Of a stretch of DNA of 57,973 nucleotides, positions 36,372 to 57,928 are shown in pieces. The position numbers and the translations under genes are program-made. Origin of the DNA: a virus (taxonomy: Duplodnaviria > Caudoviricetes); IMG/VR virus record IMGVR_UViG_3300008266_000068, positions 1 to 57,973 of that record, one strand, 5' to 3'. Every line of letters begins with the position of its first letter. Within the stretch, counting starts at the first letter, position 1. The notes under the pieces are model-generated. The model was not told where the DNA came from and made no database searches. It saw only the letters and a program-made list of their open reading frames with translations.

Positions 36372-37406
36372 TTATTTTTTAGTATCTACTTTTTTATCGT
36401 GAATATCTGCGTACTTTTTATAATAAGAAGAAACTTTTTCTTTATTAACTTTAAAACCACCATCAACGAATTCATCTGAAAAATTATTATTTATCCAATT
36501 ACCAGCTTTTAATTTTTCAACTTCATCTAACGATTCAACTCCTCCTAATCGTTTAACTGTATCACAGTGAGTAACAAAATTTTTCGCAGATTTTTTTAAA
36601 TTGATATGATGATCATTAATTAATTTATTATAATCATCGTGTGATATTTTTCCTGAAGCTAATTTTTCTGCGTATTCAGATATCTTTTTTGCACTTTCTT
36701 TTCTTTCATTATCGTGATGTTGAAGTGCATAATAATGATGCGCAATTTTTTCACCATTTGACATTGATTCGTAATCGTCAACCGATCCCGCTTTTAATTC
36801 ATCGTCGCGAATTATTTTTTTATCTGTTTTTGCTTTTTCCAATTCATCATCTTCAGATTTTCTTAACGAATTACTTGGACGTGGACTATCCCAATGTATT
36901 ACACCTTTTATTTCACCTCGTTGTTTCGCCTGTATTAAAGCTGCAGGTACTGGTTCATCACTTTGTTTATGAATTTCTGGACCTATATCGTTTTTACCGA
37001 TTTGATCGTTTATTTTTCTTAATTCTTCTTTCTTTTTTTCAATATCTTCATCTATTTTATTTAATTCATTTCCGTATTCATTGTGTTTACCATCAGCTTC
37101 CCATTTAGCATTCCACTTATCACCATGTTGTTGTTGATATTCACCAGCTTCAGAATTCATATCCCAATCAACTCTTTCACGATCTGCTTCAAGATCTTTA
37201 AGATCTTCAACTTTTTCACGTGCAATATCTGCTAACTCTGATATTCTTTTTTCTTGATTATTGTAATTTGTATTTCTATATACATAAACCCAATAACCTT
37301 TTTCGCCAATATATTTTCTAATATATTTTGTTTGTTTACTTTTTTCAAAATAACCACTTTCAATGGCTAATTTTTGCATCTGTAAAAATTGTGTACCGTA
37401 CAACAT
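36372..37406 (-). CDS. Putative internal head protein
   Basis: FEKS followed by KQTKYIRKYIGEKGYWVYVY, plus LRKS/LEKA sites; highly charged; lies in the head operon. Confidence 0.55.
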   Translation of the reverse strand: MLYGTQFLQMQKLAIESGYFEKSKQTKYIRKYIGEKGYWVYVYRNTNYNNQEKRISELADIAREKVEDLKDLEADRERVDWDMNSEAGEYQQQHGDKWNAKWEADGKHNEYGNELNKIDEDIEKKKEELRKINDQIGKNDIGPEIHKQSDEPVPAALIQAKQRGEIKGVIHWDSPRPSNSLRKSEDDELEKAKTDKKIIRDDELKAGSVDDYESMSNGEKIAHHYYALQHHDNERKESAKKISEYAEKLASGKISHDDYNKLINDHHINLKKSAKNFVTHCDTVKRLGGVESLDEVEKLKAGNWINNNFSDEFVDGGFKVNKEKVSSYYKKYADIHDKKVDTKK

Positions 37407-37416
37407 AATTTTTTAT

Positions 37417-38232
37417 TTAAGCTACTGTAAACGAAAAATCTCCGTAAATACTTCTAAGATTTTCTAACATTCCCGGTTTACCTCCAGAACCATTCAACAT
37501 CTCTGCGCTTTGTTTTATTAACGGAGAAAACAATAAAGAATTTGAATTTTGAATTGATGATAATGATTGACTTAATCCATCAATAGAAATCGATTGAGAA
37601 GCAGTTGCAAAAAACGGGTTCATACCTGTACTGAGAAAAGTTAATAAACCAATTGTCGATAACAACGCTGCACAAAATAAAATATCGTTTGGTATTTGCC
37701 ACGAATCCCAACCAGTTACGTAAGTACATTTCCAGTAATTTGGAATTTGTTGAGAATTTAAATAACCTAAATGAGGATATAAACCTTGAAACGCTACACC
37801 CATATTTTGTACATACGCAGATTGATTAGGTATAACGTTAATGTGTTTATGAAAACCTATTTGATCATTTGTTTTTTTAACAGTCAACCAATCTTTTGGA
37901 TATTGTACTTGTCTTATCGCGCCTATATAACCATCCATTGAACTTACACATGCAACAAAATAAGTAGTTTTTACAAAACCCCATTTTGACCAATCAGTTC
38001 TATTAAATTCACGATCTTCTTCTATTACTTGCTTTAATATTTTTATAGCTAAGTAATTTTCAAGATATGAAATAGAATTTTTTAAATGTGTTTCAAATGT
38101 TGAATAAGGTATTGGCTGATTATTTCTATCAACAAAATTAATACCTTGTAAATATTCTGAAACAAATTGACTTACGGGAAGAACCGTTTGCAGATTTTTC
38201 CCGTAAGATGATTGATAATTTAGAGTAGGCAT
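37417..38232 (-). CDS. Head-tail adaptor protein
   Basis: Two genes after capsid; YVTGW...IPNDIL and SQSISIDGLSQS motifs. Confidence 0.7.
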   Translation of the reverse strand: MPTLNYQSSYGKNLQTVLPVSQFVSEYLQGINFVDRNNQPIPYSTFETHLKNSISYLENYLAIKILKQVIEEDREFNRTDWSKWGFVKTTYFVACVSSMDGYIGAIRQVQYPKDWLTVKKTNDQIGFHKHINVIPNQSAYVQNMGVAFQGLYPHLGYLNSQQIPNYWKCTYVTGWDSWQIPNDILFCAALLSTIGLLTFLSTGMNPFFATASQSISIDGLSQSLSSIQNSNSLLFSPLIKQSAEMLNGSGGKPGMLENLRSIYGDFSFTVA

Positions 38233-38262
38233 AAAATATTTTTAATACAAATTTAAAAACAA

Positions 38263-38631
38263 TTATTCCTGATCTTTCTTTTCTTCAGCAGCTGCATTTA
38301 ATTTATCTGCAATATAAATTACTAAATCATCTTTTTTAAGTGCTTTCCATTCTTCTTCAGGAAATTCCTTTGCAATTTCTTTTAAATCACTCATCCGCAT
38401 TTTTTGCAATTCAGCAAGACGACCAGCAGGTGTAGATGTTTCAGGAGATGCTGATTTTTCAGCTTCGTCACTACTTAACGATAATCTACCTGAACAAGCT
38501 TCTAATAGCTCATAACAAGCATCTTCGTCATCATGTTCAAATGATCCGTTTTCATCAAACGTAACTTCACCTACAAAAGGAAATGTTACTTTATTTAATC
38601 TGTCGTGTGGATTTTTTGAAAAGATTTTCAT
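38263..38631 (-). CDS. Small protein with Rho-N/HeH-like C-terminal motif
   Basis: LQKMRMSDLKEIAKE...LKKDDLVIYI; directly downstream of capsid gene. Confidence 0.55.
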   Translation of the reverse strand: MKIFSKNPHDRLNKVTFPFVGEVTFDENGSFEHDDEDACYELLEACSGRLSLSSDEAEKSASPETSTPAGRLAELQKMRMSDLKEIAKEFPEEEWKALKKDDLVIYIADKLNAAAEEKKDQE

Positions 38632-38671
38632 ATACTTTTATTTTTTAGTTTTATAATAATATAAAAATAAT

Positions 38672-38708
38672 AAAAAAGGGCGATTCCAAATAGGAACCGC
38701 CTCTTTTT
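38672..38708 (-). terminator. Intrinsic terminator after major capsid gene (possibly bidirectional)
   Basis: AGAGGCGGTTCC-TATTT-GGAATCGCCCT stem-loop with T tracts on both strands. Confidence 0.8.
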
Positions 38709-38736
38709 ATTAAATGAAGAAACCAGGGAATTTAAA

Positions 38737-40224
38737 TTAAGCTACCAATGTCTTGGCGCAGTTAATAAACCTTACCATTTTTTTCGGAGCATAAAGATTC
38801 GGGGTTCCAAATAAGAAACAGATAAACTGCCTGCTCATTGAAATAACCGCTAAATCCAATTTTGATATCGGCGCCAATTGTTTAAATGAAACAACTTCAT
38901 CATTCCATTGTGTTAAGAATGCTTGTTCCATATCCGGTAAGAAATATCCAAGATCACGAACTACGTTAGCTGCTGCACCATCAAAACCTGTAATTGCATC
39001 ACCTTTTGAAACTGCAAATAAAGGATAAAATTCTAATCCAGTTGGAGTTGCGGCGGCAGTAGGTTTAGTCCTGTAAATTCTGTAACCTAAAGTAGGATAA
39101 GTGCCAGCACCATCTGTAACTGCTACGTCTACTGCTTTACCAGTAATAACAACCATTGCTGTTGCATCGATAGTTAAAGCAGATTCACCAAATTTACCAA
39201 TAGCTGAAACAGCGTAAAAATAATTAAGTGATCCAGGGTTATCAACAGCAGTTACATATTTACTGTTAGCGTCAGTTTGTAAAATTGATACACCACCTGT
39301 AGGAGCAGCAGGAGCTTTAGTATCAGGAAGTGATGCAGAATTTTTAGAACCCGGTGCTTTGATAAATTTATCACCAGTTAAATTAACATCGCCTACTGAT
39401 GTAGAAATAGCTTTTAATACAGTTCCCATTGTACCACTTACACCACCGCGGCCATCCTGCAAAATCCTTTGCTGATTGTAATAATCCTGAGATAAAGCGG
39501 AATTTACTTTTGGTGGAGCGAATAAATCGGTAGCAGTACCATAATGATCATCAACTATAATAGCACCTTTTTCAACGTCAGTTTGTTTTAATGATTTACC
39601 ACGTAAATCAACAACAACATCGGATTCAAAGTATGCTTTCCTGTTTGGCCAGAAATACTGTAAATTACCACCGGAACCGATCGACATATGCTGTTTATAC
39701 AAACCATTAAATTGATCTGGTACAATACCTGAATCGGCAAATGCAAGGTTGCGGTTAGCTAACCTTAAAATCCATTTCATTTTATTTTCAACTTCCTGGG
39801 TCATGGCTTGTACAAATGATTTAACCATTTGCGCCTGCATTGTTACAGAACCTGTAACCTGCATGTACTTCACCAATTCCGCCCTACGGATATATGAAGA
39901 ATCTTCAACTTCAGAAAGTTCACCTTCTGAATAAAATCCTCCTCTTTCAGAACCGTAACTGTACAACTGAACAAATTCTTCAACGGTGTTGTAAGCAACC
40001 ATTTTCGGAATTGAATTGAACATTTTAATATCCTGGGTACGGTATTCCAGATTTTTTAATGTTCTTTCTAACGATTCGGGTTTTAAAGGCTCCATTGTCA
40101 GGGAAAGGTTGGTCGTTTCACGGCCAGTTGTACTTCCTGCCTGCATGGCTTTCAACAGTTCTTCACCAGAAACATCTCCGGCGAACCCCTGTGAAAAATC
40201 ATCAAGTGATAAGTGGTTAAACAT
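38737..40224 (-). CDS. Major capsid protein (Herelleviridae-like, HK97 fold)
   Basis: ELLKAMQAG leader, LKPESLERTLK, AYNTVEEF, F.SEGEL, QFNGL, QLAPISKLDLA. Follows protease, has distinct higher-GC codon use and a strong downstream terminator. Confidence 0.9.
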   Translation of the reverse strand: MFNHLSLDDFSQGFAGDVSGEELLKAMQAGSTTGRETTNLSLTMEPLKPESLERTLKNLEYRTQDIKMFNSIPKMVAYNTVEEFVQLYSYGSERGGFYSEGELSEVEDSSYIRRAELVKYMQVTGSVTMQAQMVKSFVQAMTQEVENKMKWILRLANRNLAFADSGIVPDQFNGLYKQHMSIGSGGNLQYFWPNRKAYFESDVVVDLRGKSLKQTDVEKGAIIVDDHYGTATDLFAPPKVNSALSQDYYNQQRILQDGRGGVSGTMGTVLKAISTSVGDVNLTGDKFIKAPGSKNSASLPDTKAPAAPTGGVSILQTDANSKYVTAVDNPGSLNYFYAVSAIGKFGESALTIDATAMVVITGKAVDVAVTDGAGTYPTLGYRIYRTKPTAAATPTGLEFYPLFAVSKGDAITGFDGAAANVVRDLGYFLPDMEQAFLTQWNDEVVSFKQLAPISKLDLAVISMSRQFICFLFGTPNLYAPKKMVRFINCAKTLVA

Positions 40225-40294: not shown

Positions 40295-42007
40295 CTATGA
40301 TACTATATTTAATCCCTTACCTGTAAGATATTTATATGTAGTTCTTTCATCCAGCGTTTTAGCTATTTCAATTTCCTGAACTGATTTTTGCAACATTTGA
40401 TCAGTACCATAATTTGGCATTTCTTCGATACGTTGCATTAATGCTTCTCTATCTTCAGATTTTGATAAGCTATATACTTCACCTTCTGCTTTATTATTGT
40501 TTCCTTCATCTTTTGATTTTTCAAAACGTGGTACTTCCCTTACATTTTGAAACGCTTTTCTACCACCTTGAAATGTAGCAATTTTTTGCAGTAAATTTGA
40601 ATTACTTTCAACTGAAGCATCAAATGATTTTTGAATTGAACTAACTTTTTCAGTTTGCTGTTCTGCAATATCTGCGATAGCGGTAAATCGTGAACTTAAA
40701 AAATCAGATTGCTTAATAAAAATTTGTTCCATTCTATCAATAACGCTTGATAAAGATTTTTCCAACACTTCTTCAATAAGCAAAATATTCATTTCTTTTG
40801 ACTTCCCTAATTCTGAAGTATCACCACCCATATTTTTTGAATTCATTTCAGCCAATACGCTTTGCCATGCGCCTTGACATTCACTTAAAGAAAAACCTTT
40901 ACGAATTGAATCTTCGTAAAATGAATTTTCAACTTCAGGTGTTACACCGGCTTCAATAAAAGTTTCACATGATTTTTTTAATTCATCTTTTCTTTCACCT
41001 TCCTTAATTTGTTTCTCAACTTCTTCTTCAGTAAGTGAAGCGTTATCACCTGTTGTATTTATTTTTTCTTTAACACCACCTTCGTCTTTACCTTTTTCAA
41101 AAATCTTATTTACGTTTTCATCATCTTTTAAAAGATCTTCTGCAGATTGTGATTTACGTAAAATATCAAAAGACTTCTGTAACGCTGTTTCAGAAACTGT
41201 AGTTTTGTTATTAGTATTTGACATATCAGGATGAATTTTATTATTAACGGCTAAAATGAAATTATAAATATCTTTTGCTTTTGACAAATTTATATCAAAA
41301 TTCTTAATTATTTCACAATATACTTGTGATTTTGTTAAAGTTTTTAATCTACCATCTGTTTCAACCGATTCTAATGTAGTAGGAGCAAGAGATGAAGTAG
41401 TCATATCTTTCTCTAAATATCCACATTTTATACATTTACCATTTTGTAATTGTTCATCTGTACAATTTGGACAATATGTTTCGGGAGCAATATATAGTTC
41501 ATTATATTGACCTTTTACTATATTAACAAATGTATTTGAATTTTTAGGACAGTGTGTAATTGCAACACCAGTTATTAATGCTTTACGAACACGCTTTGGA
41601 TTTAATGGGTCTCTGTCAGTTGCTATACCTTCAATTGACCAACCTAACTGTCGCGTTGATTTATTTTTCTTTAACGTAATTGCTTTATTATAAGTATCAA
41701 TAGCTTTTTTATCGCCTTTAAATAATTTACCTCTTATAAAAAACTCATTGTTTTCAGTTACTCTTGCAGTCATAGGTTCACCTATAATAGCATCGGGATC
41801 GTCTTTTGCACGGTGATTCCAATTAATAACGCCTGATTCCATAAGCGGAGAAAAATCAAAACCTGAGGGATCAAGATATTCACCATCAAAATCTCTTCCA
41901 TTATCAGAAGCTATTCCTTCGATAATCATTTCACCATTTGATTCTTCTGTTCCTTTTACTATTTCAATTGGAACGAAAAAATTAAATTTATTTTTTTGAT
42001 CTATCAT
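40295..42007 (-). CDS. Prohead protease fused to a scaffold-like domain
   Basis: IEGIASD...DFDGE, INWNH (His), LGWSIEG (Ser), VAITHCPKN; then CPNC/CIKC and a long acidic helical tail. Confidence 0.85.
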   Translation of the reverse strand: MIDQKNKFNFFVPIEIVKGTEESNGEMIIEGIASDNGRDFDGEYLDPSGFDFSPLMESGVINWNHRAKDDPDAIIGEPMTARVTENNEFFIRGKLFKGDKKAIDTYNKAITLKKNKSTRQLGWSIEGIATDRDPLNPKRVRKALITGVAITHCPKNSNTFVNIVKGQYNELYIAPETYCPNCTDEQLQNGKCIKCGYLEKDMTTSSLAPTTLESVETDGRLKTLTKSQVYCEIIKNFDINLSKAKDIYNFILAVNNKIHPDMSNTNNKTTVSETALQKSFDILRKSQSAEDLLKDDENVNKIFEKGKDEGGVKEKINTTGDNASLTEEEVEKQIKEGERKDELKKSCETFIEAGVTPEVENSFYEDSIRKGFSLSECQGAWQSVLAEMNSKNMGGDTSELGKSKEMNILLIEEVLEKSLSSVIDRMEQIFIKQSDFLSSRFTAIADIAEQQTEKVSSIQKSFDASVESNSNLLQKIATFQGGRKAFQNVREVPRFEKSKDEGNNNKAEGEVYSLSKSEDREALMQRIEEMPNYGTDQMLQKSVQEIEIAKTLDERTTYKYLTGKGLNIVS

Positions 42008-42021: not shown

Positions 42022-42414
42022 CTATATTTTTATTAAATGAATTATTATACATAAAATAAAAACAATCACTGTTATTAGTAGTTCTAACAATCTACCTTTT
42101 TTAGTAAATATTTTTTGAAATAAATCATTTTCACTGTAAATATTTTTCGGTTGACGAGTAAGTAAAATAGTAAAATAATTATAAAAAATTCTACGTGAAA
42201 CAATTGCAGCTGGAATTAAAAAATACGCGTGAGTATCAATTAACATTAAAGAAAATGAGAAAATGAGAACTAATGTAAAAATAGTTGTTCTGTAAAATTC
42301 CTGTTTACAAAATAATTTATAATTAATAAGTTTTTCAGTTCTTAATTTTATTGTAGCTTGTTTTAATAAAGCTTCAACAATAAATAAAATTGAAATTAAA
42401 AATAAATACTTCAT
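42022..42414 (-). CDS. Membrane protein
   Basis: Several hydrophobic segments. Confidence 0.55.
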   Translation of the reverse strand: MKYLFLISILFIVEALLKQATIKLRTEKLINYKLFCKQEFYRTTIFTLVLIFSFSLMLIDTHAYFLIPAAIVSRRIFYNYFTILLTRQPKNIYSENDLFQKIFTKKGRLLELLITVIVFILCIIIHLIKI

Positions 42415-42812
42415 ATTTCTTTTTCTTTATTCGTTAAAATATCGATATTTACTTGACCTTTCTTTTGTATTGTACCCAGGATATAATAAAACAACCATTG
42501 ATTTGCTACACCTACAAGATATAATATCAAAACAGATAATGGGATCCATTTTGAAAATTGCATAATGTGTTCATTAGCAGACGCAGATATTGTTTTCATA
42601 AAATGAAATGAATATGCTATAATACAAGTAAAAATTATACTCATACAATAACTCGGCCATTCACGAGAAAAAAACTTCTTCAACACTATATTCCAATTTA
42701 TATCTTCAGGTGTTTTATCTACAATACTTTTCATTTTAGCAAATATGTGAGTTACAACACCAGATAATAAAATTATCCACATCGCGAAAAAAGAAAGAGG
42801 TATGATTATCAT
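42411..42812 (-). CDS. Membrane protein (possible holin-like)
   Basis: Three hydrophobic segments and a basic C-terminus. Confidence 0.55.
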   Translation of the reverse strand: MIIIPLSFFAMWIILLSGVVTHIFAKMKSIVDKTPEDINWNIVLKKFFSREWPSYCMSIIFTCIIAYSFHFMKTISASANEHIMQFSKWIPLSVLILYLVGVANQWLFYYILGTIQKKGQVNIDILTNKEKEI

Positions 42813-42865
42813 GATATTTACTTTTTAAAAATTAAAATTATTAATAAAATCTCAATTTATTATTT

Positions 42866-43354: not shown

Positions 43355-43422
43355 ATAAGTTAGTTTAAAATTAACTATAAAACTATTATGAATTAAAATA
43401 TAATTAAAGTTATTTTATATTT

Positions 43423-46503: not shown

Positions 46504-46514
46504 ATTTTTTTTAT

Positions 46515-47099: not shown

Positions 47100-47144
47100 G
47101 TTAATATTATTAATTCAAAATTAATACTTTTTTGTTTTATAATT

Positions 47145-50100
47145 TTATTTTTCACCGGCTTCATATACCTTACCACTTTCAGGAACTTTAAACTTCGGAA
47201 TTATTATTCCAGTTTTAACATTATCGTAATCAGAAATTTGTAAATCTTTTATTTGTGGAACATTAACTGCAGTTACGCTTTTGTTTCTTTCTATTAAATC
47301 CAACAAAGGTAAAGTGTATTGTTTGTCGTTATATTTAAACGATATTTTAATATCTTTACTATTAGTAAACATATTTGAAACTGTAGTTAACGTATCTGAT
47401 ATAAATTTCTTTGTAGAAGATTCGTTTATAGAAGAAATAAACTGATTTACATTTCTTTCTCTATTTTCAAATGTATGTAATTTTTCGTGTTTTGTTTTTA
47501 ATTTTTCTAATCCTTTATTATAAACTTTATCTTTTGATTCTATTTTACTTAAAAAATCAATATCTGTTGGTAAAGTTTTCGTACCATATAATTCAGAAAA
47601 ACCATTTAAAGTATTTGCATGAAAAACTGATTCAATTACATCTGCATATTTTTCAGGTATATCAATTCTCTTTGCTGTACGTTTATCATAATATACTCCA
47701 TCTTTTTTAACAGAATAAATTAATTTATCTTTTAAACCAGCATATATTGTTGAATTTTTTAATTCATTTTTTCTATACTCAAAATCATCGTCTTCTTCAA
47801 TTTTTTTATGATACCTTTGAGTATATGGAACACCTTTGCTTGATACTTTTTTCACTGCTTCAACTGTTAACGCTTTTTCAAATTCGTTTAAAACATCGTA
47901 TTCATTATATTCAATACCGAAGAAGTCGTTTGCTTTATTCAATTCATCAGGTATATAATTAAAATACGTTGTTTCATTTCCTGCAGATTTTTTTAATTTG
48001 TTGTAAAAATACCAATCAGTAACTAAATTTAAAGATTTTTTAGCGCGTGTATAAGCCACATACCTGAGATTAGCTTCCTGTGTTGCCTGAAATTCATTTT
48101 TAGCACGTGTTCCATGTAACATATCATCTTCAACAATATAGACTCTATCAGCTTCTAATCCCTTCGCTTTATGAACTGACGATAACTGAATTCCACCTTT
48201 CTGTGATTCTGAAAATATTTTACTAATATTTGCAACCATTTCATTAGGTGTTTTTGAATCATCTCGTAATGCTTCATAACATTCTCTACGTTCTGTCAAA
48301 TTAATAACCGGATTTGATTCCAATGCTTGTTCATGCGTTAATCCACGTAATACCTGTTTGTTAATTATTTTACCAATTTCTAAATTAATTTTAAGATACA
48401 TATTTTTAAACCCTTCAGGTGAATCCATTAATTTTTTACCTACATATCTTTGAATTTCATTTATCATTGTTTCACCTATATCACGACCTTTTATTGTTGC
48501 TGCCTTTTTTTCACCAATAAATTTCATACATAAAGAAATCAAAGGCGCGTTATTTCTACACAACACCATATCGCCTGCTTTAATATCGTTTATAGATGAT
48601 TCTAAATTTACTTCACCATCTTCTGCTTTTTCCCAATAATCAATATCAACGCCTGTTGTTTGCCTAACGTAATTTATTATTGATTTACCACAACGATATG
48701 AAACTGAAAGTGGAAGACGTTTTGTATTTTCAGTATTAGCTATATTTTCAAATGATTCATGATCACTTCCCATAAAACCAAATATAGCCTGTCGTGGATC
48801 ACCTACAGCAACCATTCTACCACCAATCTTTGGATCGAACATTTTTCTAACTAATTTTAATTGCGCTTTATTTAAATCCTGACATTCGTCAACAAATACA
48901 AAATCATATTTTTGTACTCCAAATTTATCATACGCTGCAGGTAAATAAATCATGTCTTCATAATCTATCATTTCAGTTCTTGCATCCAACATTTTCATAC
49001 AAGTTCTTACATACTGTGCTTCATTTGAAATTAATTCAACACCTTGTCTACGTACTAATTCAGTTAATAAAGCTGGATCAGCGGTTAAATTTTGCTGCCC
49101 TGTTGAAACTAATTTATAAACATTAGCCATAAATTCGATCTTATCGCCATCTTCTAATTTCTGTTCAGTAGCAATTCGATTAACAAATTCATTAAGTACT
49201 AATTTTTTCTTATCTTTTTCAACCTTTATATATTTACCATAAACTTTCTTTATACAATTAAATCCAAATGCATGCAATGTTGAGCAATCAACTTCCTTAG
49301 GTAATCTTTCACTTAATTCAGTTTGAATAAGTTTTGAAAACGCTACAAAAGCTATTTTTTTATTTTTAGGAATAAACTCCATACTATTAACTATAGTAGT
49401 AGTTTTTCCAGTACCAGCTTTTGCATCTACCGCGCAATTACCTTCACCGCTTTGAATAAAATCAAAAATACCTTGTTGCTGTGGAGAAGGTGTTTGTTTA
49501 GGTTTTATTGAAATTTCACCTTCAATATTTAATGAACCATCTGAAGCAGTTGAAGGTGTATTAACATCAGCAGTTTCTTTTTCCAATTCTTTAACTTCTT
49601 CAATTTGTTTTTCTTCTTTACTTATAAGATGTTTGTAATCACTATGAACATGATGTTCATTGCCAACTATAGGTACCCACCCTGCTGCAGTTTTTACATT
49701 TTTCTTAGCCTTATCTAATGAACCAATTGGAAATGCTTTTTTACCTTTTTCAAATTCATCATCGATATTACCTTTTTCCATTACTTCACATATCGTATCT
49801 TTATTATCAATTAATGTTTGTATAAATAAATCGTCATTGTCATCGTTTCTATCCATATTATACATCACAAAACTTATAGCTTGTAGTGAACCGTTAAGTG
49901 ATATTTCTGGAGTAACTGTTATTAATTGTTTTGGTGAAATTATTTCATCAAATTTTTCTTCTATAATTCCAGTTAATCTTTCTTTTAAATCTAAAATAAA
50001 AAATTCGCTTGGTATTTCATTTAAATTATTAATACTTACTAACTGATAATCATGTTGTTCTTCATGATCTAATACAATATGATCTTCAATTACAAAATTT

Positions 50101-53100
50101 TCATTTAATAAAATGTAGAAGTAAAATGATTTTGTTTTATCTGTATTTTCTATTACTTTAGCAAATCTTACATCTTCTTCATTAAAGACAATATTTATTT
50201 CTTCCAACGTTTCACGAATTGCTGCACAAATAGGTGTTTCATTTAATTCTATTTTACCACCCGGTAATGCTAATTTACCGGGCATAAAATCATCGTCTTT
50301 ACTTCTCTTTACAAGTAATACTCTTAAATCATTTGTTACAACTATTAAATCTGCGTATTGTGGTTTTTCTTTTTTAAATTTATTTAGTTTTATAATATTA
50401 CCTATAGCATCTGTAAAAGGCTTAAAAAACTTTGATATTGCTGCGAATCCTGACGATTCTCCGACTTTTTCGTCTTCGCCAAATAGTTCATCGATAGCTT
50501 TTTTTAATTCATCAGATTCATAAAGTTTGCGCATCTGACTTAAAATATCTTTATTCGACGAAATGATATTATGACTTATAATATTTCTGTCGTAAAATAA
50601 ACCTGAAACTTCAGTTTCTACCTTTTCAATTTTTTGCGCCTTAGGCATTTTTGAATCCTTGAAGTTATGTGCCATCATTGTACATATAACATCACCAGGG
50701 TAATTTTCAATTAATTTATCGTATGATCTTTTACTAATTACAACAGCGGGTTGATTCCTTTGTGCAAATCTGTTAGCTTCAAGAATATTGTCTTGATTAT
50801 ATGCTGGCTTATTTTCAATGCTTTGATATGTACCATTTCCATTGTCAACTAAAAACGCAGGTGAACCTACATCACTTGATCTATATGAACGTAATAAATT
50901 TCTTGTTTCATCAGGTGCATAAGGTTTTTCAAATTTTACAGCCCAGGGACTTACTGATAATACTTTTAAATCCAATTCATCTTTAAAATTGTTTCTTATA
51001 AAATCCTTATGAACAAGATCGTATATTTTCTGACTGTCTTTTAATAATGAATGTGTACCATTCATTTCATCAAGTTTTGTATTTTGATACTCTAACGCAC
51101 TTTGTTTTGTAACAAATTTTTGTGAATGTGTTTTTATAATATCGCTATCACCAGTATCAAGATAACTATCTATACTTTTTTTATTTAAATGATAAAAAGA
51201 ATAATACTCTGCAAAAGCTTCTTCAGGTGAAACATGAGCATAATCAGTAATTAATTTTATACCACTGTTGCTACCATTTCTTGGTATTCTTATATCATCG
51301 CCTGTTGCGTTATCTTTTGTTCTTTCTTCTTTATAACTCCATCCACATTGATTTGCAAATTTTCTATATTCTTGACTTCCATATCTATCAAGTTTTTTAG
51401 AAACAGCATGTCCCATTTCATGAACAACTACAGAAGCGAAATGATCTGTCGCGTCTATGTTTGATACTTTAGAAGTTGCTCGTAAACAATCTGGTGAAAA
51501 CTGTATTTTTTTATTATTAGGATCGTAAAACGCGTAAGTCTTCGTATATTCATTATCATATTGTATTGTAGTTAAATTTGAATTATTTACAATATGACCT
51601 TTTGGCAAAGTATCTATTAACTTTTCAATTGTTTCTAATGCGTTAATATTTGATTTATTCCAATCACCTGTTAATTGTTTTTTATATTTTGAATTAAAAC
51701 GCATTTGAAGTACTGGTTTAAAATCCAATTTCGCTTTTTCAAAATAGTCTTTATTTATCAAATCAGTAAATATAATATCTAAATCGTATTTATTTACTGG
51801 AAATTTATTTGCATTTACATAACTTTGAAAATGATTCTTCGCTTCCTCTTCTGAAAAACCAACTTGTTTGAATTTCTTTAAAAAGTTACCTTTTATTTTT
51901 TCAGCATCTTTTATATTTGCCAAACTTATAGTTGGAACATTATAACGAGGTACAGATACAGAACCATTATCGCCAAAACCTAAAGTAACTTCAATATTTT
52001 GTCCTTGAAAAAACGTTAATAATTTTTTACCTGTTAATGAAAATCTTTTAAAAGCTGAATTAGTAGCAGCAGTAGGTTTTGGGTGTTTACCTATTATCGA
52101 TAATAAAGAAGCAAATCTTTGTACATGTAAATCATTATCTACAGTATTTTTAACAAAAAATCTACTCAATGAATTTGTAGCAACTGCTGTAAGAGCTAAT
52201 GACGATATACCTGACGTTTCGTTTGCATCTACAATTAAACTATCACGAGTACCTAAATATTTCATTAGTTCTTTCATTATCTGATTTGATCCTGTTACAG
52301 TTAATGCAACACCATCGTAATCATAATTACTTTTTTGTGTATCTGCAACAACTGATAATACACCTTTGACGTTATTTATTTCAACATCGTAATCGTTTGT
52401 TAATTCTTCATTAGTTGGTACGTTATCTTCAACGACTGTTTTTTCTAACTTCTTTACAAGATCGCCGTAAAATATATGCGCATCTGAAAATATATCTACA
52501 TCAAAACGTTTTATTGATTCTTTTTCTAAATACGTTTTTATAGCATCGTTATTATGATTTAAATAAAATTCAAAATCTTTATCAATGCTATCAGTTTGTG
52601 TTTGATATAATATCCAATTACTACTGAAATTTTCAACACAAAATTGTTTTAATTCATTTACCTTATCAACAACTTCAAAATATTTATCGGCTTTTGAATT
52701 TCTTAAATCTGCAAGTTCACCTCTAAACTGCTTGTATTTTTCTTCTAATTCTGGTGAAAGGTTTTTAGCTTCAAGTAAATGTTCATAATTTGCTTGTATA
52801 ACATCTCCTAAATTAGTAAATAATGAAATATCTACTTCTTTAGAAAGTTTGTCTTTATATTTTTCCCTTACTTCTTTTTTAATTGCTTTTACAATATCAT
52901 CTTTACCATCAACTGCACCTACTGCTGCTAAACGATCTTGTATTTCAATATACATTTGTTGCCATATAGACATCGCACGTTTTGTAAATTCATTTGTAAA
53001 TGAATATTTTAACGCACCATAAAATCCTTCGTATTGTTTGAAATCAGTAGGTTTGAAAGGACCATTTTGTTCACCTTCAACTTTTTTAAAGTTTGTTATT

Positions 53101-53330
53101 ATTTCATCAAGAAAAACTTCACCATTTACAGGTTCTTTTATTCTACAAAATTCTTGTGATAATTTATTTAAGTGATTACCTAATTTTTCTAAAATTGGAA
53201 AACTTGGAAGATCATACCAACCATTATGATAATTTGTAGCCTCATGTAATTTTATTACCATTCCACGCTGCCAACTTCTAATTGTACCGACTGGGCAAAC
53301 TCTTGGCCGTTCTTCTTTTGAAATCGACAT
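47145..53330 (-). CDS. Polyvalent protein: zincin-like metallopeptidase + Nudix hydrolase + SF1 (UvrD-like) helicase
   Basis: HEMGH (51408-51422) with downstream EEAFAE; Nudix box GGKIELNETPICAAIRETLEE; AKAGTGKTT, VDECQD, VGDPRQAI, SYRC, HKAKGLE, YVAYTRAK. Confidence 0.85.
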   Translation of the reverse strand: MSISKEERPRVCPVGTIRSWQRGMVIKLHEATNYHNGWYDLPSFPILEKLGNHLNKLSQEFCRIKEPVNGEVFLDEIITNFKKVEGEQNGPFKPTDFKQYEGFYGALKYSFTNEFTKRAMSIWQQMYIEIQDRLAAVGAVDGKDDIVKAIKKEVREKYKDKLSKEVDISLFTNLGDVIQANYEHLLEAKNLSPELEEKYKQFRGELADLRNSKADKYFEVVDKVNELKQFCVENFSSNWILYQTQTDSIDKDFEFYLNHNNDAIKTYLEKESIKRFDVDIFSDAHIFYGDLVKKLEKTVVEDNVPTNEELTNDYDVEINNVKGVLSVVADTQKSNYDYDGVALTVTGSNQIMKELMKYLGTRDSLIVDANETSGISSLALTAVATNSLSRFFVKNTVDNDLHVQRFASLLSIIGKHPKPTAATNSAFKRFSLTGKKLLTFFQGQNIEVTLGFGDNGSVSVPRYNVPTISLANIKDAEKIKGNFLKKFKQVGFSEEEAKNHFQSYVNANKFPVNKYDLDIIFTDLINKDYFEKAKLDFKPVLQMRFNSKYKKQLTGDWNKSNINALETIEKLIDTLPKGHIVNNSNLTTIQYDNEYTKTYAFYDPNNKKIQFSPDCLRATSKVSNIDATDHFASVVVHEMGHAVSKKLDRYGSQEYRKFANQCGWSYKEERTKDNATGDDIRIPRNGSNSGIKLITDYAHVSPEEAFAEYYSFYHLNKKSIDSYLDTGDSDIIKTHSQKFVTKQSALEYQNTKLDEMNGTHSLLKDSQKIYDLVHKDFIRNNFKDELDLKVLSVSPWAVKFEKPYAPDETRNLLRSYRSSDVGSPAFLVDNGNGTYQSIENKPAYNQDNILEANRFAQRNQPAVVISKRSYDKLIENYPGDVICTMMAHNFKDSKMPKAQKIEKVETEVSGLFYDRNIISHNIISSNKDILSQMRKLYESDELKKAIDELFGEDEKVGESSGFAAISKFFKPFTDAIGNIIKLNKFKKEKPQYADLIVVTNDLRVLLVKRSKDDDFMPGKLALPGGKIELNETPICAAIRETLEEINIVFNEEDVRFAKVIENTDKTKSFYFYILLNENFVIEDHIVLDHEEQHDYQLVSINNLNEIPSEFFILDLKERLTGIIEEKFDEIISPKQLITVTPEISLNGSLQAISFVMYNMDRNDDNDDLFIQTLIDNKDTICEVMEKGNIDDEFEKGKKAFPIGSLDKAKKNVKTAAGWVPIVGNEHHVHSDYKHLISKEEKQIEEVKELEKETADVNTPSTASDGSLNIEGEISIKPKQTPSPQQQGIFDFIQSGEGNCAVDAKAGTGKTTTIVNSMEFIPKNKKIAFVAFSKLIQTELSERLPKEVDCSTLHAFGFNCIKKVYGKYIKVEKDKKKLVLNEFVNRIATEQKLEDGDKIEFMANVYKLVSTGQQNLTADPALLTELVRRQGVELISNEAQYVRTCMKMLDARTEMIDYEDMIYLPAAYDKFGVQKYDFVFVDECQDLNKAQLKLVRKMFDPKIGGRMVAVGDPRQAIFGFMGSDHESFENIANTENTKRLPLSVSYRCGKSIINYVRQTTGVDIDYWEKAEDGEVNLESSINDIKAGDMVLCRNNAPLISLCMKFIGEKKAATIKGRDIGETMINEIQRYVGKKLMDSPEGFKNMYLKINLEIGKIINKQVLRGLTHEQALESNPVINLTERRECYEALRDDSKTPNEMVANISKIFSESQKGGIQLSSVHKAKGLEADRVYIVEDDMLHGTRAKNEFQATQEANLRYVAYTRAKKSLNLVTDWYFYNKLKKSAGNETTYFNYIPDELNKANDFFGIEYNEYDVLNEFEKALTVEAVKKVSSKGVPYTQRYHKKIEEDDDFEYRKNELKNSTIYAGLKDKLIYSVKKDGVYYDKRTAKRIDIPEKYADVIESVFHANTLNGFSELYGTKTLPTDIDFLSKIESKDKVYNKGLEKLKTKHEKLHTFENRERNVNQFISSINESSTKKFISDTLTTVSNMFTNSKDIKISFKYNDKQYTLPLLDLIERNKSVTAVNVPQIKDLQISDYDNVKTGIIIPKFKVPESGKVYEAGEK

Positions 53331-53548: not shown

Positions 53549-55072
53549 TTAAGCGATATCTACAAGAACTGCAGCTTGTTTTTCGAATTTTTGTTTATCC
53601 AAAACACCACCATTCATTCTTTCATTAACTTTTGCAAACATTGCAAGGTTTGAAAGTGTTCTACCGTTTACTTTATCGATATCAAGGTTTTTTCTGTATT
53701 TAGTAAGAAAATCAATAACCGCTTGTGTATGTTCAGGTTTAACTCCCATATCATTTCCTTCCTTATCTCTGAACTTCATTATGTTTTTAATTTTATTCAA
53801 CTTATGAATTGTTTCATCCATAGTCATTGATAAATCAATTGCACGTGCTCTTGAATTAACAATAGGTTGAGGTAAATCTTTACGCCTTAAATTTGTAATG
53901 AATATTACTTCACCTGAAAACTTAAATGATTTAGGTGGATATACTTTTTTACCGTCTTCAGTTATTGATATTGGTTTTGGATTTGGGTACCTTATTGTAT
54001 TAGTACCTGAAGTATCTAAAGCACCTTTTAACATATTACCTGCATCTTCATCATCCCACATATTATCGCAGTCATCAAATATAACAAGCTTATCTTTATT
54101 TGTGTACATTAAATTATACATATCAGAAGGTGAAGTTGAACCTGTAATTGTTACAGCGTCGTATTCATCTGCATCTAAATGTAATTCTTCATCGTAAACA
54201 CGTTTGTTATTTCTATCCAACGATTTTAATAACTCCCATGTTTTACCAACACCGCCTGTACCATAAGCAATTAAAGCTTTAGGACGACCTGTAATCATAA
54301 TTGCATCCAAACATAAATCGTATGCATCCCAACGATCTTCGTAACCAACACCTAATGTTTCTGCAATTTTCTTTTTCTGAAAACGATTTATTTTATCGTA
54401 ATCTTTTTGCGAAACTTCTTCCTTAATATCGTTGATATCGAAGTCTTCAGACATTACGTCAACTTTACCATCTTTATCAGTAGGTACATCAGAAGGTAAA
54501 GATGAACCAGTAGGTTTTACAGATTTAAATCCTGAAAAATCATGTTCACGTAATTCCTGTTTTTGAAGATGCGTTGCGTATTTATAATCGCCCAATAAAT
54601 CACCGTGCACATTTGGATCATATATTCCCATAGACATTAAATCACGATGTTGTTGTGCGCGATTTACGTTTTTCTTATTTTCAATTATTGATTGTATTTT
54701 TTCTTCATCGCTATTACCATCAATATCTTTTTCACCTTTATATTTACCACCAAAATTATGAGCAGCATCAATTGTATTATCAACCCAACGAAATGTTTGA
54801 TATGTACTACCATCTTTTTTCTTTGCAATAATTTGTTTCTTTACAAGTTTTGAAGTGTCCAACATACCTTTCACTAAATAGCTTTTAAAACCTAAATCGA
54901 TATTGTTTAAAACAGATTTTTTAACTTCCTGTTTAACCTCTTCAACTTGTTTTTCTTCTTCAACACTTTTTTCAAGTTTAGATGCTTTATCACCTTTTTG
55001 TATTACTTTATCAATATTTTTATTTTTTGCATATTGATTCAGTAAATTAATTTTGCGTTGATTAGCTGACAT
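53549..55072 (-). CDS. AAA-family ATPase with long N-terminal leader
   Basis: YGTGGVGKT (Walker A), VIFDDCD (Walker B), IFITN (sensor 1), SRA (Arg finger). Confidence 0.8.
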   Translation of the reverse strand: MSANQRKINLLNQYAKNKNIDKVIQKGDKASKLEKSVEEEKQVEEVKQEVKKSVLNNIDLGFKSYLVKGMLDTSKLVKKQIIAKKKDGSTYQTFRWVDNTIDAAHNFGGKYKGEKDIDGNSDEEKIQSIIENKKNVNRAQQHRDLMSMGIYDPNVHGDLLGDYKYATHLQKQELREHDFSGFKSVKPTGSSLPSDVPTDKDGKVDVMSEDFDINDIKEEVSQKDYDKINRFQKKKIAETLGVGYEDRWDAYDLCLDAIMITGRPKALIAYGTGGVGKTWELLKSLDRNNKRVYDEELHLDADEYDAVTITGSTSPSDMYNLMYTNKDKLVIFDDCDNMWDDEDAGNMLKGALDTSGTNTIRYPNPKPISITEDGKKVYPPKSFKFSGEVIFITNLRRKDLPQPIVNSRARAIDLSMTMDETIHKLNKIKNIMKFRDKEGNDMGVKPEHTQAVIDFLTKYRKNLDIDKVNGRTLSNLAMFAKVNERMNGGVLDKQKFEKQAAVLVDIA

Positions 55073-55158: not shown

Positions 55159-56091
55159 TTATACTTCATAATTTTTTTCTCCAATAGAAATTCTTACTTT
55201 ACTTCTACGTTTTACTTTAGGAATATATTCAACGTTTTTAGCAATATCAAAATTTTGAGTTTTATAATTCCAACTATAATTTTGATCGCAATAATTTAAA
55301 CTACATCTGCAATGTGGATGAGTACTTCCAATAACTGGCTTCCATTTATTAACCTGTCTACCTATATTAGTACCATTACCACGTAATTCTGATAATTTAA
55401 AAATACGCGGTTCACTTTCAAATCCCTTTGTAGTATAAAGCGCTATACAATGTTTACATGCTGATTCATATACTCTTTTCCAAACAAGAACGTCATCTCC
55501 ATATACGTTCTGTAAATATTCAGCTTTTCCTTCCTGATATGCAGTGTTAGAGACGTATTCTACAATGCGATCAAAATTTCTTGACCAATCACCTGATTTG
55601 CTTGATAATTCATTAGCAATGTCTCTTACAGTGTCGCCATCCAATACACCTTGCATTATTTCTTCACGTATAAATTTTTCTTGATTTTTTCTTGTATTTT
55701 TATTTAAGACATTATTAATGTCATGAAATATTTTACCGCCTAATCCTTTTATGTCACCTAATGATTGATTTTTTACACTCTTTAAAACATATGATTGTCG
55801 CTGTGAAAGTTGTAATGGATTTGTTTTCATATAATTAATCATATCATCATATGACCAATTCATTGCTTCTTTTAATCCAAGTGCTTGTGAAAGTATACCT
55901 AAATGAAACGACGATTTTAATCCATCGCTAATTGGTTGATAAATTTTTAAAGCATCGATTCCATATTTACTCAATAATTGAATATCTTTAGGTTGAAGAA
56001 ATTCAGTACCTACGTAATTACTTAAAAATGTAAGATTATGCTTTTGAATAATCTCTTCGATTTGCTGTAGTTGATGTGGAAATAGTTGCAT
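55159..56091 (-). CDS. MuF-like head morphogenesis (minor head) protein
   Basis: DWSRNFDRIVE...ACKHC...HPHCRC signature. Confidence 0.8.
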   Translation of the reverse strand: MQLFPHQLQQIEEIIQKHNLTFLSNYVGTEFLQPKDIQLLSKYGIDALKIYQPISDGLKSSFHLGILSQALGLKEAMNWSYDDMINYMKTNPLQLSQRQSYVLKSVKNQSLGDIKGLGGKIFHDINNVLNKNTRKNQEKFIREEIMQGVLDGDTVRDIANELSSKSGDWSRNFDRIVEYVSNTAYQEGKAEYLQNVYGDDVLVWKRVYESACKHCIALYTTKGFESEPRIFKLSELRGNGTNIGRQVNKWKPVIGSTHPHCRCSLNYCDQNYSWNYKTQNFDIAKNVEYIPKVKRRSKVRISIGEKNYEV

Positions 56092-56103
56092 TTTTTAAAT
56101 AAA

Positions 56104-56576: not shown

Positions 56577-56583
56577 AGTAGGT

Positions 56584-56808
56584 TTATTTTTTACGGTTTA
56601 TTACTTTTCTTTCAATAATATCAGGTTTTATAATTCCTAACATTTGATTTCTAACCTCTAATTTAATAAAATCAGATAACCCCATTAATTCAAGAGGTGT
56701 AAACCCATCGTTAGTTCTTTCCATTTTACTTGTACCATCTGTAAATTCAGTTAATGATACTGTCCATTTTTTAACTTTTAATGCTTTTTTCTTTTCTGTT
56801 TGTGCCAT
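56584..56808 (-). CDS. Small phage hypothetical protein
   Basis: 74 aa, tightly packed with neighbours. Confidence 0.6.
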   Translation of the reverse strand: MAQTEKKKALKVKKWTVSLTEFTDGTSKMERTNDGFTPLELMGLSDFIKLEVRNQMLGIIKPDIIERKVINRKK

Positions 56809-56810
56809 GA

Positions 56811-56951
56811 TTAATTATTTTTTAGTTCAGTGTAATAATATATCTCTGCCTGTTTTTTTGTAAACGGTGGCAATTTTTCAGCCTTTTTATGTTCAGGTTT
56901 TTCAAAAAAACAAGCTAAGATAAAAACACCTGTTAATATTAATAGTGCCAT
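56811..56951 (-). CDS. Small membrane-anchored protein (46 aa)
   Basis: Start revised to MALLILTGVFILACFF at 56951, because the longer ORF runs into the tRNA-like element. Confidence 0.5.
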   Translation of the reverse strand: MALLILTGVFILACFFEKPEHKKAEKLPPFTKKQAEIYYYTELKNN

Positions 56952-56968
56952 AGTGGTTATTATTTTAG

Positions 56969-57067
56969 TAGTCAGGACAGGATTCGAACCTGTAACGCAT
57001 TTCGGCATAATTCTTATGCTATATCGTGGTTAGCTACTCCAGCGTCTACCAATTCCGCCACCTGACT
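56969..57067 (-). ncRNA. tRNA-like RNA (Leu-type D/T arms, no canonical anticodon arm)
   Basis: Perfect 7-bp acceptor AGTCAGG/CCTGACT plus discriminator A; D region TGGCGGAATTGGTAGACGC; T arm ACAGG-TTCGAAT-CCTGT; 48-nt centre without a 5-bp/7-nt anticodon arm; no encoded CCA. Confidence 0.75.
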
Positions 57068-57110
57068 ATTGTTTCCCCGCCCTCACCCATAACATTCTTT
57101 GGAGGGTTGG

Positions 57111-57341
57111 TTATTGGTTGTTTTTGTTAAGTTCTGAAATAAGGGCATCGGCTTGTTTTACAGCTTGTTCTGCTCTTTCAAAACCAGTACCATAATAAGA
57201 AACTAACCCCTGCATAGCCATAGCAGCAAAGTATTCACGTTTGGTTAAGCCGCCAAACAACCCTGTTACCATTTCTGTATCATTTTGGTTTACCCAATTT
57301 CTTTCAGTTGTTGGGTACATTGGTTCATTTCCATTTGTCAT
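57111..57341 (-). CDS. Small phage hypothetical protein
   Basis: GLTKREYFAAMAMQGL...AVKQADALI motif of a widespread small phage protein family. Confidence 0.7.
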   Translation of the reverse strand: MTNGNEPMYPTTERNWVNQNDTEMVTGLFGGLTKREYFAAMAMQGLVSYYGTGFERAEQAVKQADALISELNKNNQ

Positions 57342-57379
57342 ATTTCTACTTTATCTTTAATTATTTCAATCATTAGTGG

Positions 57380-57928
57380 TTATTTATCAATTAAATTAAT
57401 TGTTGTTTGTCCAACACCTTTTTCAGTTTTATACATAAACCCTTCTCCGTCTTCATCTATATTTAATACTTTAAATTGTTCACCGTTTATAAAAAACATA
57501 TCACCAATTTCAACTTTTTCACCTCTGTATTTTGTTTTTAATTCAGTTTCACTTGGTACATAATTATGATCTTTTTTTAACTCCTGTAAATCATTATCAA
57601 TATTTAATTGAATATAATGTCGATCGTTTTTAGAAGCATGATGTAAATCATAACGTAATTTTTTTATATGTGATATCAACCAGTTTTTAGATGTTTCTTC
57701 ATTTCTTTCCTTTCTACTACTAATTTCTTCGTGATCTTTTTTAACCTTTGGTATTTTTTCTTTTTTTTCTTTTACAACTTTTTCTTTCGGTTCAGCAACA
57801 ACTTTGTTTTTATTTAATTCTTTGTCTACTAAATTTTCGTTACCTATTACAGGTACCCATCCATTTTCTGTTTTTACATTTTTGCCAGATTTATCTAGCA
57901 TACCGATTGGAAAAGATTTTTTAGACAT
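57380..57928 (-). CDS. Putative internal head protein with N-terminal tag shared with the polyvalent protein
   Basis: N-terminal KKSFPIGMLDKSGKNVKTENGWVPVIGNE; Lys/Glu-rich linker; C-terminal SH3/KOW-like beta region. Confidence 0.65.
   Translation of the reverse strand: MSKKSFPIGMLDKSGKNVKTENGWVPVIGNENLVDKELNKNKVVAEPKEKVVKEKKEKIPKVKKDHEEISSRKERNEETSKNWLISHIKKLRYDLHHASKNDRHYIQLNIDNDLQELKKDHNYVPSETELKTKYRGEKVEIGDMFFINGEQFKVLNIDEDGEGFMYKTEKGVGQTTINLIDK

Follow-up and report, generated by a model that had tools for sequence, protein, structure and literature searches.

The prohead protease of bacteriophage T4 cuts after glutamate. In that phage, internal proteins bearing a short signal, the capsid-targeting sequence (CTS), enter the prohead and are cut there by the protease gp21 at a simple consensus (PMC9024508, PMC10052503; here and below, statements on published systems follow the accessible text of the papers cited). 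Which proteins are carried within the capsid, and how they are selected, has been worked out in a small number of model phages only (T4, P1, P22 and phiKZ-like phages). A related arrangement is described here for a 57,973-nt stretch of viral DNA (positions 1 to 57,973 of IMG/VR record IMGVR_UViG_3300008266_000068, Caudoviricetes), hereafter the window, which was analysed together with related loci recovered by a MuF-centred search of IMG/VR and with Chryseobacterium phage MA9V-3 (= L018). The element in question is a cassette comprising a predicted lysine-specific protease site, [L/I/F/V/M]-x-K↓[S/A/G], with the arrow marking the predicted cut, and a basic hairpin module termed tag A, which is located behind short N-terminal leaders, at domain junctions and at the C-termini of non-structural proteins whose genes fall between portal and protease. 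It occurs twice in the window, once between the Nudix and helicase domains of a 2061-residue protein and once as the first residues of a small protein, p182, where the tag has no upstream site. This site-plus-tag cassette is real and apparently undescribed, and we hold with moderate confidence, on the strength of sequence comparisons, that it marks proteins incorporated into the prohead, which the maturation protease would trim or separate and the pieces of which would exit with the DNA.

The locus shares with T4 a short, here putative, signal on non-structural proteins, an assemblin-fold protease and a protease consensus dense in the scaffold core, but whereas the T4 signal (IPIII and other internal proteins) is N-terminal and removed, the predicted cut here follows lysine, the hairpin would be retained and may also be internal or C-terminal, and there is no sequence similarity between the two signals. 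In PhiKZ and SPN3US many head-internal proteins carry the protease consensus, and multi-site propeptides have been recorded by mass spectrometry (PMC10052503); by comparison with the present locus, these are giant phages with a different motif and propeptides of 111-254 residues, and no portable tag is described in the accessible text. In phage P1, a capsid targeting signal of 30 residues at the N-terminus of DarB suffices to load a reporter (PMC9024508), and the DarA-Hdf pair is located on the inner capsid surface, bound to both shell and DNA (PMC12810830). The likeness to the Dar proteins is that large enzymes (anti-restriction enzymes in P1) carry a short signal; the differences are that loading was established by experiment in P1 and is only predicted here, that the text available mentions neither a family of repeated tags nor a coupled cleavage site for DarB, and that the lineage is unrelated. 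Encapsulin Family 1 targeting peptides, consensus SDGSLGIGSLKRS, address enzymes to the lumen of an HK97-fold shell (PMC8346489) and share 'IGSL.K' with the FPIGSLDK of the window, a match of five residues confined to the window subtype of the tag. The encapsulin peptides are, however, mostly C-terminal and uncleaved, whereas tag A is N-terminal or internal, and it is not a C-terminal peptide matching SDGSLGIGSLKRS.

The remaining comparison is with the polyvalent proteins of Iyer, Burroughs, Anand, de Souza and Aravind (2017), for which release by embedded peptidases, either a zincin MPTase or a C-terminal assemblin-like domain, was proposed (PMC5512222). As in that work, the window encodes a multidomain protein in a head gene cluster beside a MuF-like gene; by way of contrast, a recurrent hairpin tag coupled to a prohead-protease site was not found in the accessible text of that paper, its supplementary domain lists lying outside the comparison. 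The principle of capsid targeting combined with processing is therefore already known from T4 CTS/gp21, SPN3US/phiKZ and P1 DarB/DarA-Hdf. What would be new is the lysine specificity in the SPO1/Twort-like lineage, a repeated hairpin kept after the predicted cut, and its use at N-termini, junctions and C-termini alike.

The features on which the recognition motif was established are as follows.
40295..42007, minus strand: prohead protease-scaffold fusion, 570 amino acids (aa) (PHROG 1028 'head maturation protease', E 3.4e-38)
38737..40224, minus strand: major capsid protein (MCP), SPO1/Twort-like, 495 aa (PHROG 752, E 6.5e-66; SPO1 Gp6.1, PDB 9vel, E 5.6e-49)
40150..40224, minus strand: MCP leader, aa 1-25, ending EELLK25, with the predicted cut before A26 (h-x-K↓A conserved)

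The protease domain occupies approximately aa 1-170 of the fusion (41498-42007) and the scaffold part approximately aa 200-570, the latter carrying 13 [LIFMV]xK[SAG] sites. Although the protein has no Pfam, NCBIfam or PDB sequence match, its N-terminal domain is an assemblin-fold prohead protease as judged from PHROG 1028, from the invariance of His65 (NWNH) and Ser124 (G-x-S-I-E-G) in eight orthologs, and from the structural neighbours of its AlphaFold2 (AF2) model (predicted local distance difference test, pLDDT, 71; predicted template modelling score 0.67). Among the Foldseek matches listed from the PDB (within ranks 1-50, with gaps), all were to herpesvirus assemblin or T4 gp21 (5jbl), with weak scores (best E 1.7e-3, template modelling score 0.45). 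His65 and Ser124 are the putative catalytic pair. A zinc-ribbon-like CxxC...CxxC insert (YCPNCTDEQLQNGKCIKCGY, aa 178-197, 41417-41476) lies between the protease domain and the scaffold of the window protein and of none of the seven orthologs aligned with it.

Counts of [LIFMV]-x-K-[SAG] were compared with those in 2000 composition-matched shuffles. The protease-scaffold contained 17 matches against 2.8 expected (approximately sixfold, p<0.0005), in keeping with the density claimed for it by the original prediction, and the MCP contained 6 against 2.2 (p=0.018), whereas 13 other head-region open reading frames (ORFs) gave 9 against 10.6 and 34 tail and replication ORFs gave 46 against 45.4, with no enrichment. 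Nine related protease-scaffolds shared the excess, with 15-21 matches seen for approximately 3.5 expected and, in one truncated copy, 7 for 2.3; all ten scaffold proteins, including that of the window, gave p<=0.004. A per-position scan over eight scaffold regions demonstrated that lysine was the sole residue enriched at position P1 ([LIFMVY]-x-X-[SAG], 116 seen against 19.4 expected, z 23.5; every other residue, arginine, glutamate and glutamine included, at a ratio <=1.4), that serine, alanine and glycine alone were enriched at P1' (z 12-14), and that only leucine, isoleucine, phenylalanine, valine and methionine were enriched at P3. This strict P3/P1/P1' pattern points to a protease-site signature rather than to composition or heptad periodicity, so that the motif behaves as the recognition site it had been proposed to be. 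A coiled-coil heptad was considered as the cause of the scaffold matches and rejected, in that it would favour neither lysine over arginine or glutamate at P1 nor serine, alanine or glycine at P1'.

The capsid leader ends EELLK25↓A26, as originally read, and h-x-K↓A is kept in the window and seven relatives. L-L-K25↓A26 aligns with ALNK↓A of SPO1 Gp6.1 and with DVVK24↓S25 of 5lii, which the MCP also matches (E 1.5e-14), and the PDB chain 9row (439 aa, Twort-like) is the 5lii sequence starting at S25. The alignment of the MCP Lys↓Ala with the first residue of 9row is thus the best support for a cut after lysine. The enzyme would most likely cut after the lysine of [L/I/F/V/M]-x-K↓[S/A/G], thereby degrading its own scaffold at about a dozen sites and removing the 25-residue capsid leader. 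Lysine-specific cleavage was not described in the papers on Bc431v3 and Felix O1.

A much weaker excess characterised the four non-structural proteins that the original prediction had singled out as tag carriers, namely the 2061-residue protein, p182, and the proteins p507 and p344 described below. Pooled, they contained 24 matches against 15.6 expected (ratio 1.54, p=0.025); individually, the values were 13 against 10.3 for the 2061-residue protein (p=0.23), 6 against 2.8 for p507 (p=0.05), 4 against 1.7 for p344 (p=0.09) and 1 against 1.0 for p182. The narrower h-[EQ]-K-[SAG] gave 8 against 2.1 in the four, both motif and proteins having been picked after inspection. The expected enrichment was accordingly strong in the scaffold and slight in the candidates, where the signal is positional rather than one of overall density. 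As a separate observation, a 552-aa protein outside the head module (29899-31557) has at least five internal repeats of G-x-V-R-I-Q-K-[SA]-V-D-x-x-Q-x-G-V-I, from which five of the motif matches outside that module arise.

Two of the candidates carry tag A. Their features are listed in order along each protein.
47145..53330, minus strand: polyvalent-type protein, 2061 aa (UvrD-helicase 1.4e-20, NUDIX 1.3e-12; PHROG 1967 helicase 7e-92)
53205..53330, minus strand: N-terminus of the same protein (CPVGTIRSWQRGMVIK...NGWYDL, aa 1-42), a possible degenerate third tag copy (not significant)
51399..51653, minus strand: zincin-like segment, aa 560-644, VVVHEMGHAVS (Aspzincin_M35, PF14521, E 0.0033, 18.3 bits against a cut-off of 30)
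50022..50357, minus strand: Nudix domain, aa 992-1103 (PF00293, E 1.3e-12)
49656..49784, minus strand: double site VMEK1186↓G and FEK1195↓G, then tag A (GKKAFPIGSLDKAKKNVKTAAGWVPIVG, aa 1196-1223; tag profile i-E 2e-15)
48018..49457, minus strand: UvrD/Rep-type superfamily 1 helicase, aa 1292-1771 (PF00580, PF13361, PF13538)
57380..57928, minus strand: p182, a small protein with tag A at its extreme N-terminus (no Pfam family)
57839..57925, minus strand: tag A of p182 (SKKSFPIGMLDKSGKNVKTENGWVPVIGN, aa 2-30; tag profile i-E 6e-16)

Tag A, represented by aa 1196-1225 of the polyvalent-type protein and aa 2-30 of p182, is one homologous module with 56% identity between the two copies. It is basic, approximately 30-45 residues in length, and follows the pattern (G)K(K/R)A-h-I-G-x5-9-G-K/R-x-h-K-T-x-x-G-W, of which I-G ... 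K-T-x-x-G-W is the invariant core; GKGxGxKAQxH often follows it. An AF2 model of the tag alignment is a beta-hairpin. Subtypes differ after the I-G, the window having FPIGSLDK and others IGEKRTF or IGTVNKH. The double site and tag of the polyvalent-type protein are conserved in its orthologs L002 and P0034, and its N-terminus, similar to a tag interrupted by an insertion, is shared by three orthologs and scores 1.5-5.8 bits to the tag profile.

An iterated profile recovered 22 copies in the window and 10 related loci, all on the MuF strand and inside head modules. A profile search of a word-indexed collection extended these to 138 proteins, and an exhaustive search of 1.84 billion representatives to 568 clusters at E<=1e-3, 124 of them at <=1e-10, with up to three copies per protein. 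A tblastn search of 50,697 cultured phage records returned MA9V-3 alone; in its complete genome five copies are present in four head-module proteins, all of them encoded in the interval from portal to protease-scaffold, and no further copy was detected at E<1. When a single copy was searched against cellular genome contigs, 308 pattern matches were recorded and none confirmed, which is weak evidence of absence. No Pfam family was found for the tag even at E<=10, nor anything useful in NCBIfam for the tag and its carriers, and the module is not described in Pfam or in the literature searched, most subscription journals and supplements lying outside that search.

The coupling of site to tag is the principal positive finding. 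In 119 of 126 unique copies the I-G of the tag is preceded, at a distance of 3-9 residues (most often 7), by the lysine of a motif match, so that the predicted cut is upstream of the tag, which would stay on the product; the T4-like cleavable targeting signal envisaged at the outset, a removable N-terminal propeptide, was therefore not what was found. The site is kept in 19 of 20 greedy sequence clusters at a similarity of 0.7 and in all seven at 0.5, greedy clustering being used as single-linkage clustering merged all tags into one cluster. A second site lies approximately 8 residues further upstream in 72 of 113 copies, with almost none downstream and a background of 0.0065 sites per residue. 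Among the seven exceptions, p182 and P0099 start the protein at the predicted P1' position, S2 of p182 occupying the position equivalent to P1' in FEK↓GKKAFPIG, and P0174 and P0132 start likewise, as judged by eye. Divergent subtypes retain the site (FEK↓GKKAFPIG, LEK↓GGKRAxIG, FYK↓AQPIG and LEK↓SKTKGYTG), and h-x-K↓G is kept even when only 6-7 residues precede the tag. Of 108 leaders, 13 (among them those of P0025, P0101 and P0147) share a motif, (Y/F)NFD...I-x-x-N-L/I-L-K-S-Y, that includes the protease motif, where shuffles lead one to expect 0.18; p507 of the window has a degenerate version, RKINLLNQY.

The polyvalent-type protein consists of an N-terminal region with no assigned domain, the zincin-like HEMGH segment, the Nudix domain, the site and tag A, the UvrD-type helicase, a further site and an extra C-terminal module, and its gene is located between the MuF-like gene and the protease and MCP genes. 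It thus combines at least two disparate domains in one polypeptide (NUDIX, UvrD helicase and the HEMGH segment) within a phage head context, as polyvalent proteins do; no LPD family was returned by the Pfam scan of it. The Nudix-then-tag arrangement recurs in the window and in L001, L005, L008, L009 and L010. When the 57 longest tag proteins listed were scanned with Pfam, the partners found were NUDIX (9), LPD1 (3), DUF3626 (3), DUF6496 (3) and Topoisom_I (2, the topoisomerase partner being topoisomerase IB), with one each of InPase, MuF_C, UvrD and ADPrib_exo_Tox, and a separate scan located an S-adenosylmethionine (SAM) lyase domain on a tag carrier. LPD1, InPase, MuF and ADP-ribosyltransferase are hallmark domains of polyvalent proteins, for which packaging and injection are predicted (PMC5512222). 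The PHROG matches of p182 were weak and lay away from its tag: phrog_10164 (unknown function), 1.7e-4 at aa 138-181, and phrog_1829 (DNA primase), 9e-4 at aa 50-130.

Three further segments had been grouped with tag A as parts of a single code.
47811..47882, minus strand: polyvalent C-terminal junction FEK1819↓ALTVEAVKKVSSKGVPYTQRY (no relatives by jackhmmer)
47148..47873, minus strand: extra C-terminal module of the polyvalent-type protein, aa 1820-2061 (only in the window protein)
53549..55072, minus strand: p507, AAA-like ATPase with Walker A GTGGVGKT (PHROG 1250, 3.9e-27)
54869..55072, minus strand: p507 leader, aa 1-68, with four motif sites, VIQK26↓G, LEK35↓S, VKK52↓S and LVK68↓G
54773..54868, minus strand: 'tag B' of p507 (GMLDTSKLVKKQIIAKKKDGSTYQTFRWVDNT, aa 69-100), entered as LVK68↓GMLDTSKLVKKQIIAKKKDGSTYQTFRWV
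36372..37406, minus strand: p344, a charged protein (no family in Pfam, PHROG or NCBIfam)
37278..37349, minus strand: p344 site FEK22↓S with a hairpin-like segment (KYIRKYIGEKGYWVYVY), the string reading FEK22↓SKQTKYIRKYIGEKGYWVYVY

The sequences quoted in the original prediction were all present in the ORFs to which it assigned them, every one on the minus strand. The single code did not survive: of the five tags proposed, only the two tag A copies belong to one module, and the tag A profile, which established that module as portable, missed the segments of p344, p507 and polyvalent aa 1820-1840 even at E<=50. These three are best regarded as distinct variants of a site followed by a basic hairpin, for which the support is much weaker. 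Likewise, the several unrelated enzymes held to carry the tags were recovered in part, the zincin-like, Nudix and UvrD helicase assignments being domains of one 2061-aa protein and p507 an AAA-like ATPase, whereas p344 and p182 have no recognisable enzyme domain.

Tag B is conserved in the L002 ortholog of p507, which aligns along the length of p507, and is also present in a 505-aa L010 protein, a candidate ortholog, where it follows EK↓S; both were above threshold by jackhmmer. A similar segment in an unrelated Nudix protein of L008 was sub-threshold (i-E 0.92), and a homolog search with aa 56-105 of p507 returned p507 only. The MA9V-3 ortholog has a weak PF00004 match. The L002 ortholog (L002:451-2226) has in addition an N-terminal VIEK↓GGEGSKGGKVIGHTRSGKPVY, a site followed by a basic glycine-rich segment of a third kind. 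At the polyvalent C-terminal junction, the orthologs L002, P0034 and P0212 end near FEK1819↓A and do not have what follows, so that the 242 residues beyond it constitute an added module, for which no match was found in any fetched locus or protein and no family in Pfam or PHROG. For p344, the ESM Atlas gave no usable match and no counterpart was found at the syntenic place in MA9V-3; the sole jackhmmer look-alike of its hairpin was a weak one (E 0.02), EK↓AIGGKYTSKYIKNGKWVYVY in the L015 protease-scaffold. That scaffold (L015:13454-15385) has an extra module at aa 240-350 starting with the same EK↓AIGGKYTSKYIKNGKWVYVY, an insertion suggesting that cargo may also ride as a scaffold fusion.

According to the reading that we favour, the cassette would first mark proteins for incorporation into the prohead, after which the lysine-specific maturation protease would cut directly before the hairpin; the cut would separate neighbouring domains and leave the hairpin as a new N-terminus, and the pieces would finally leave the capsid together with the DNA. 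Several results weigh against it. Motif density over whole candidate proteins is only 1.54 times expectation, and the MA9V-3 head module minus its scaffold (29 matches against 21) is little different from the rest of that genome (124 against 101). The tag copies are phylogenetically related, and 119 of 126 overstates the number of independent events. The tag by itself folds with moderate confidence only (pLDDT 67), and since h-x-K-G persists with 6-7-residue leaders it could be a conserved part of the module fold rather than a cut site. As the predicted cut retains the tag on the product, a role as an address is no better supported than one in the mature protein, for example in DNA binding. 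The tag was not found within 10 kb of MuF in 7 of 16 related loci (L011-L017), the portal and terminase genes are not in the window, and mass spectrometry and sodium dodecyl sulphate polyacrylamide gel electrophoresis (SDS-PAGE) do not occur in the accessible text of the MA9V-3 paper (PMC13120357).

Other explanations were weighed on the same data. It is conceivable, if doubtful, that in phages with HK97-fold shells the hairpin plays the part of the encapsulin targeting peptides and acts as a portable code for capsid loading; its putative binding partner would then be the inside of the capsid shell or the scaffold, and the cut would free neighbouring domains and create a defined N-terminal hairpin. 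Alternatively, it could be a substrate-docking or processing element presenting h-x-K↓G to the prohead protease, with the address elsewhere in leaders, MuF or the portal. The tight and fixed spacing of site and tag with its peak at -7, the additional sites and the NFD..I-x-x-N-L/I-L-K↓S-Y motif of upstream leaders, and the persistence of the tag on the product would all suit such an element, but the scaffold and MCP sites are under the same selection with no hairpin, the extreme N-terminal tags that have no site (p182, P0099) make little sense for a pure cleavage aid, and a cut at the C-terminal tag of the MA9V-3 Nudix protein would free just 28 residues; we consider it unlikely. Slightly less likely still is a nucleic-acid-binding N-terminal module that keeps internal or early proteins on the packaged DNA and is only matured by the protease. 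A basic module with a conserved tryptophan is compatible with that role, the net charge being approximately +4 for the polyvalent tag A, +1.5 for that of p182 and +3.8 to +4.5 for the p507 and p344 segments (-0.1 for the polyvalent C-terminal junction, the scaffold being acidic with an isoelectric point of 4.9), as are the GKGxGxKAQxH that often follows and the DNA contact of the capsid-bound DarA-Hdf pair of phage P1 (PMC12810830); the invariant I-G...K-T..G-W nevertheless looks more like a specific protein-protein docking motif, and no known DNA-binding family matches the tag.

That these proteins are not virion cargo at all, the module serving as a conserved linker or a motif for interaction in early enzymes and helpers of head assembly whose genes stand in the head cluster by coincidence, with h-x-K-G as part of the module fold, would agree with the near-background motif density across the candidates and with the AAA-like p507, which could act in assembly. 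It appears improbable, since it leaves unexplained that the tag flanks copy the exact P3/P1/P1' rule of the scaffold, that extra sites occur only upstream of tags, and that the partners are effector domains typical of packaged polyvalent proteins. Chance, finally, was a caveat already attached to the original prediction: lysine constitutes 8.1% of residues, a lysine-rich proteome will yield x-K-S/A/G beside basic stretches, and isolated matches do occur in DnaE (9 against 5.2 expected) and elsewhere. As a general account it is extremely improbable, given that shuffles yield 2.8 matches where the scaffold has 17, that tail and replication ORFs are at expectation, and that tag and site are conserved across hundreds of clusters; chance is rejected for the scaffold sites and tag A, although it may account for the p344 and polyvalent C-terminal junction 'tags'.

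Independently of whether the tagged proteins are cargo, the L/I/F/V/M-x-K↓S/A/G rule is usable for annotating maturation sites in the SPO1/Twort-like capsid lineage. The partners of the cassette are effector domains thought to counter host defences at injection, and should the cassette prove to direct loading and processing, injected effectors could be predicted by a simple rule in a phage lineage that has received little study, the concept of polyvalent proteins would become linked to the prohead protease instead of embedded peptidases, and a candidate tag would be at hand for bringing foreign proteins into phage heads. Were the hairpin in addition a portable loading code, attaching the cassette would turn any enzyme into an injected effector, be it a Nudix protein, topoisomerase IB, ADP-ribosyltransferase, SAM lyase or helicase, and delivery by the virion would be predicted for the proteins of some 570 clusters, mostly without annotation, from uncultured phages.

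The window has a guanine plus cytosine (GC) content of 28%, with every long ORF on the minus strand, and includes the head-morphogenesis module of a myophage. Its left part encodes a DnaE-type polymerase, a DnaB-like helicase, the tail sheath and other tail proteins. The head module consists in order of p182, four small ORFs, the MuF-like gene, p507, the 2061-aa polyvalent-type protein, p194, a 1026-aa fibre/spike-like protein, three membrane proteins, the protease-scaffold, the MCP, a Rho_N-like protein, p271 and p344. The only cultured relative is MA9V-3, a myovirus (PMC13120357) with a complete genome of 103 kb, which was the sole close match among the cultured phage records (MCP identity 57%) and in which the portal adjoins the polyvalent gene region.

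55159..56091, minus strand: MuF-like head morphogenesis protein, 310 aa (PF04233, 17.7 bits against a cut-off of 29.6; PHROG 4728, 1e-5)

The MuF assignment is based on the head-morphogenesis match in PHROG and on a Pfam score (PF04233, SPP1 gp7 family) below the gathering cut-off, and the protein is accordingly termed MuF-like only; 15 orthologous loci were found for it.

MA9V-3 is annotated with a transfer-messenger RNA gene, folE, queE (7-deazaguanine pathway), thyA and RecA (L018:22766-23124, 45868-49069), none of which is in the window. The head module contains an insertion at 42022-46503 that encodes the 1026-aa fibre/spike-like protein, which has a signal-peptide-like N-terminus, and the three small membrane proteins; the assignment of the former is based on PHROG tail spike and virion structural matches, and its counterpart at the same place in MA9V-3 has 1459 aa. 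The GC fraction is 0.40 at 44001-46000 compared with approximately 0.28 elsewhere in the window. Just after the MCP, a small protein (38263-38631) has a Rho_N-like (SAP-like) C-terminal domain (PF07498, E 9.8e-4, below the cut-off), Rho-N being among the nucleic-acid-binding domains of polyvalent proteins (PMC5512222), and the printed sequences indicate a similar protein at the same place in MA9V-3.

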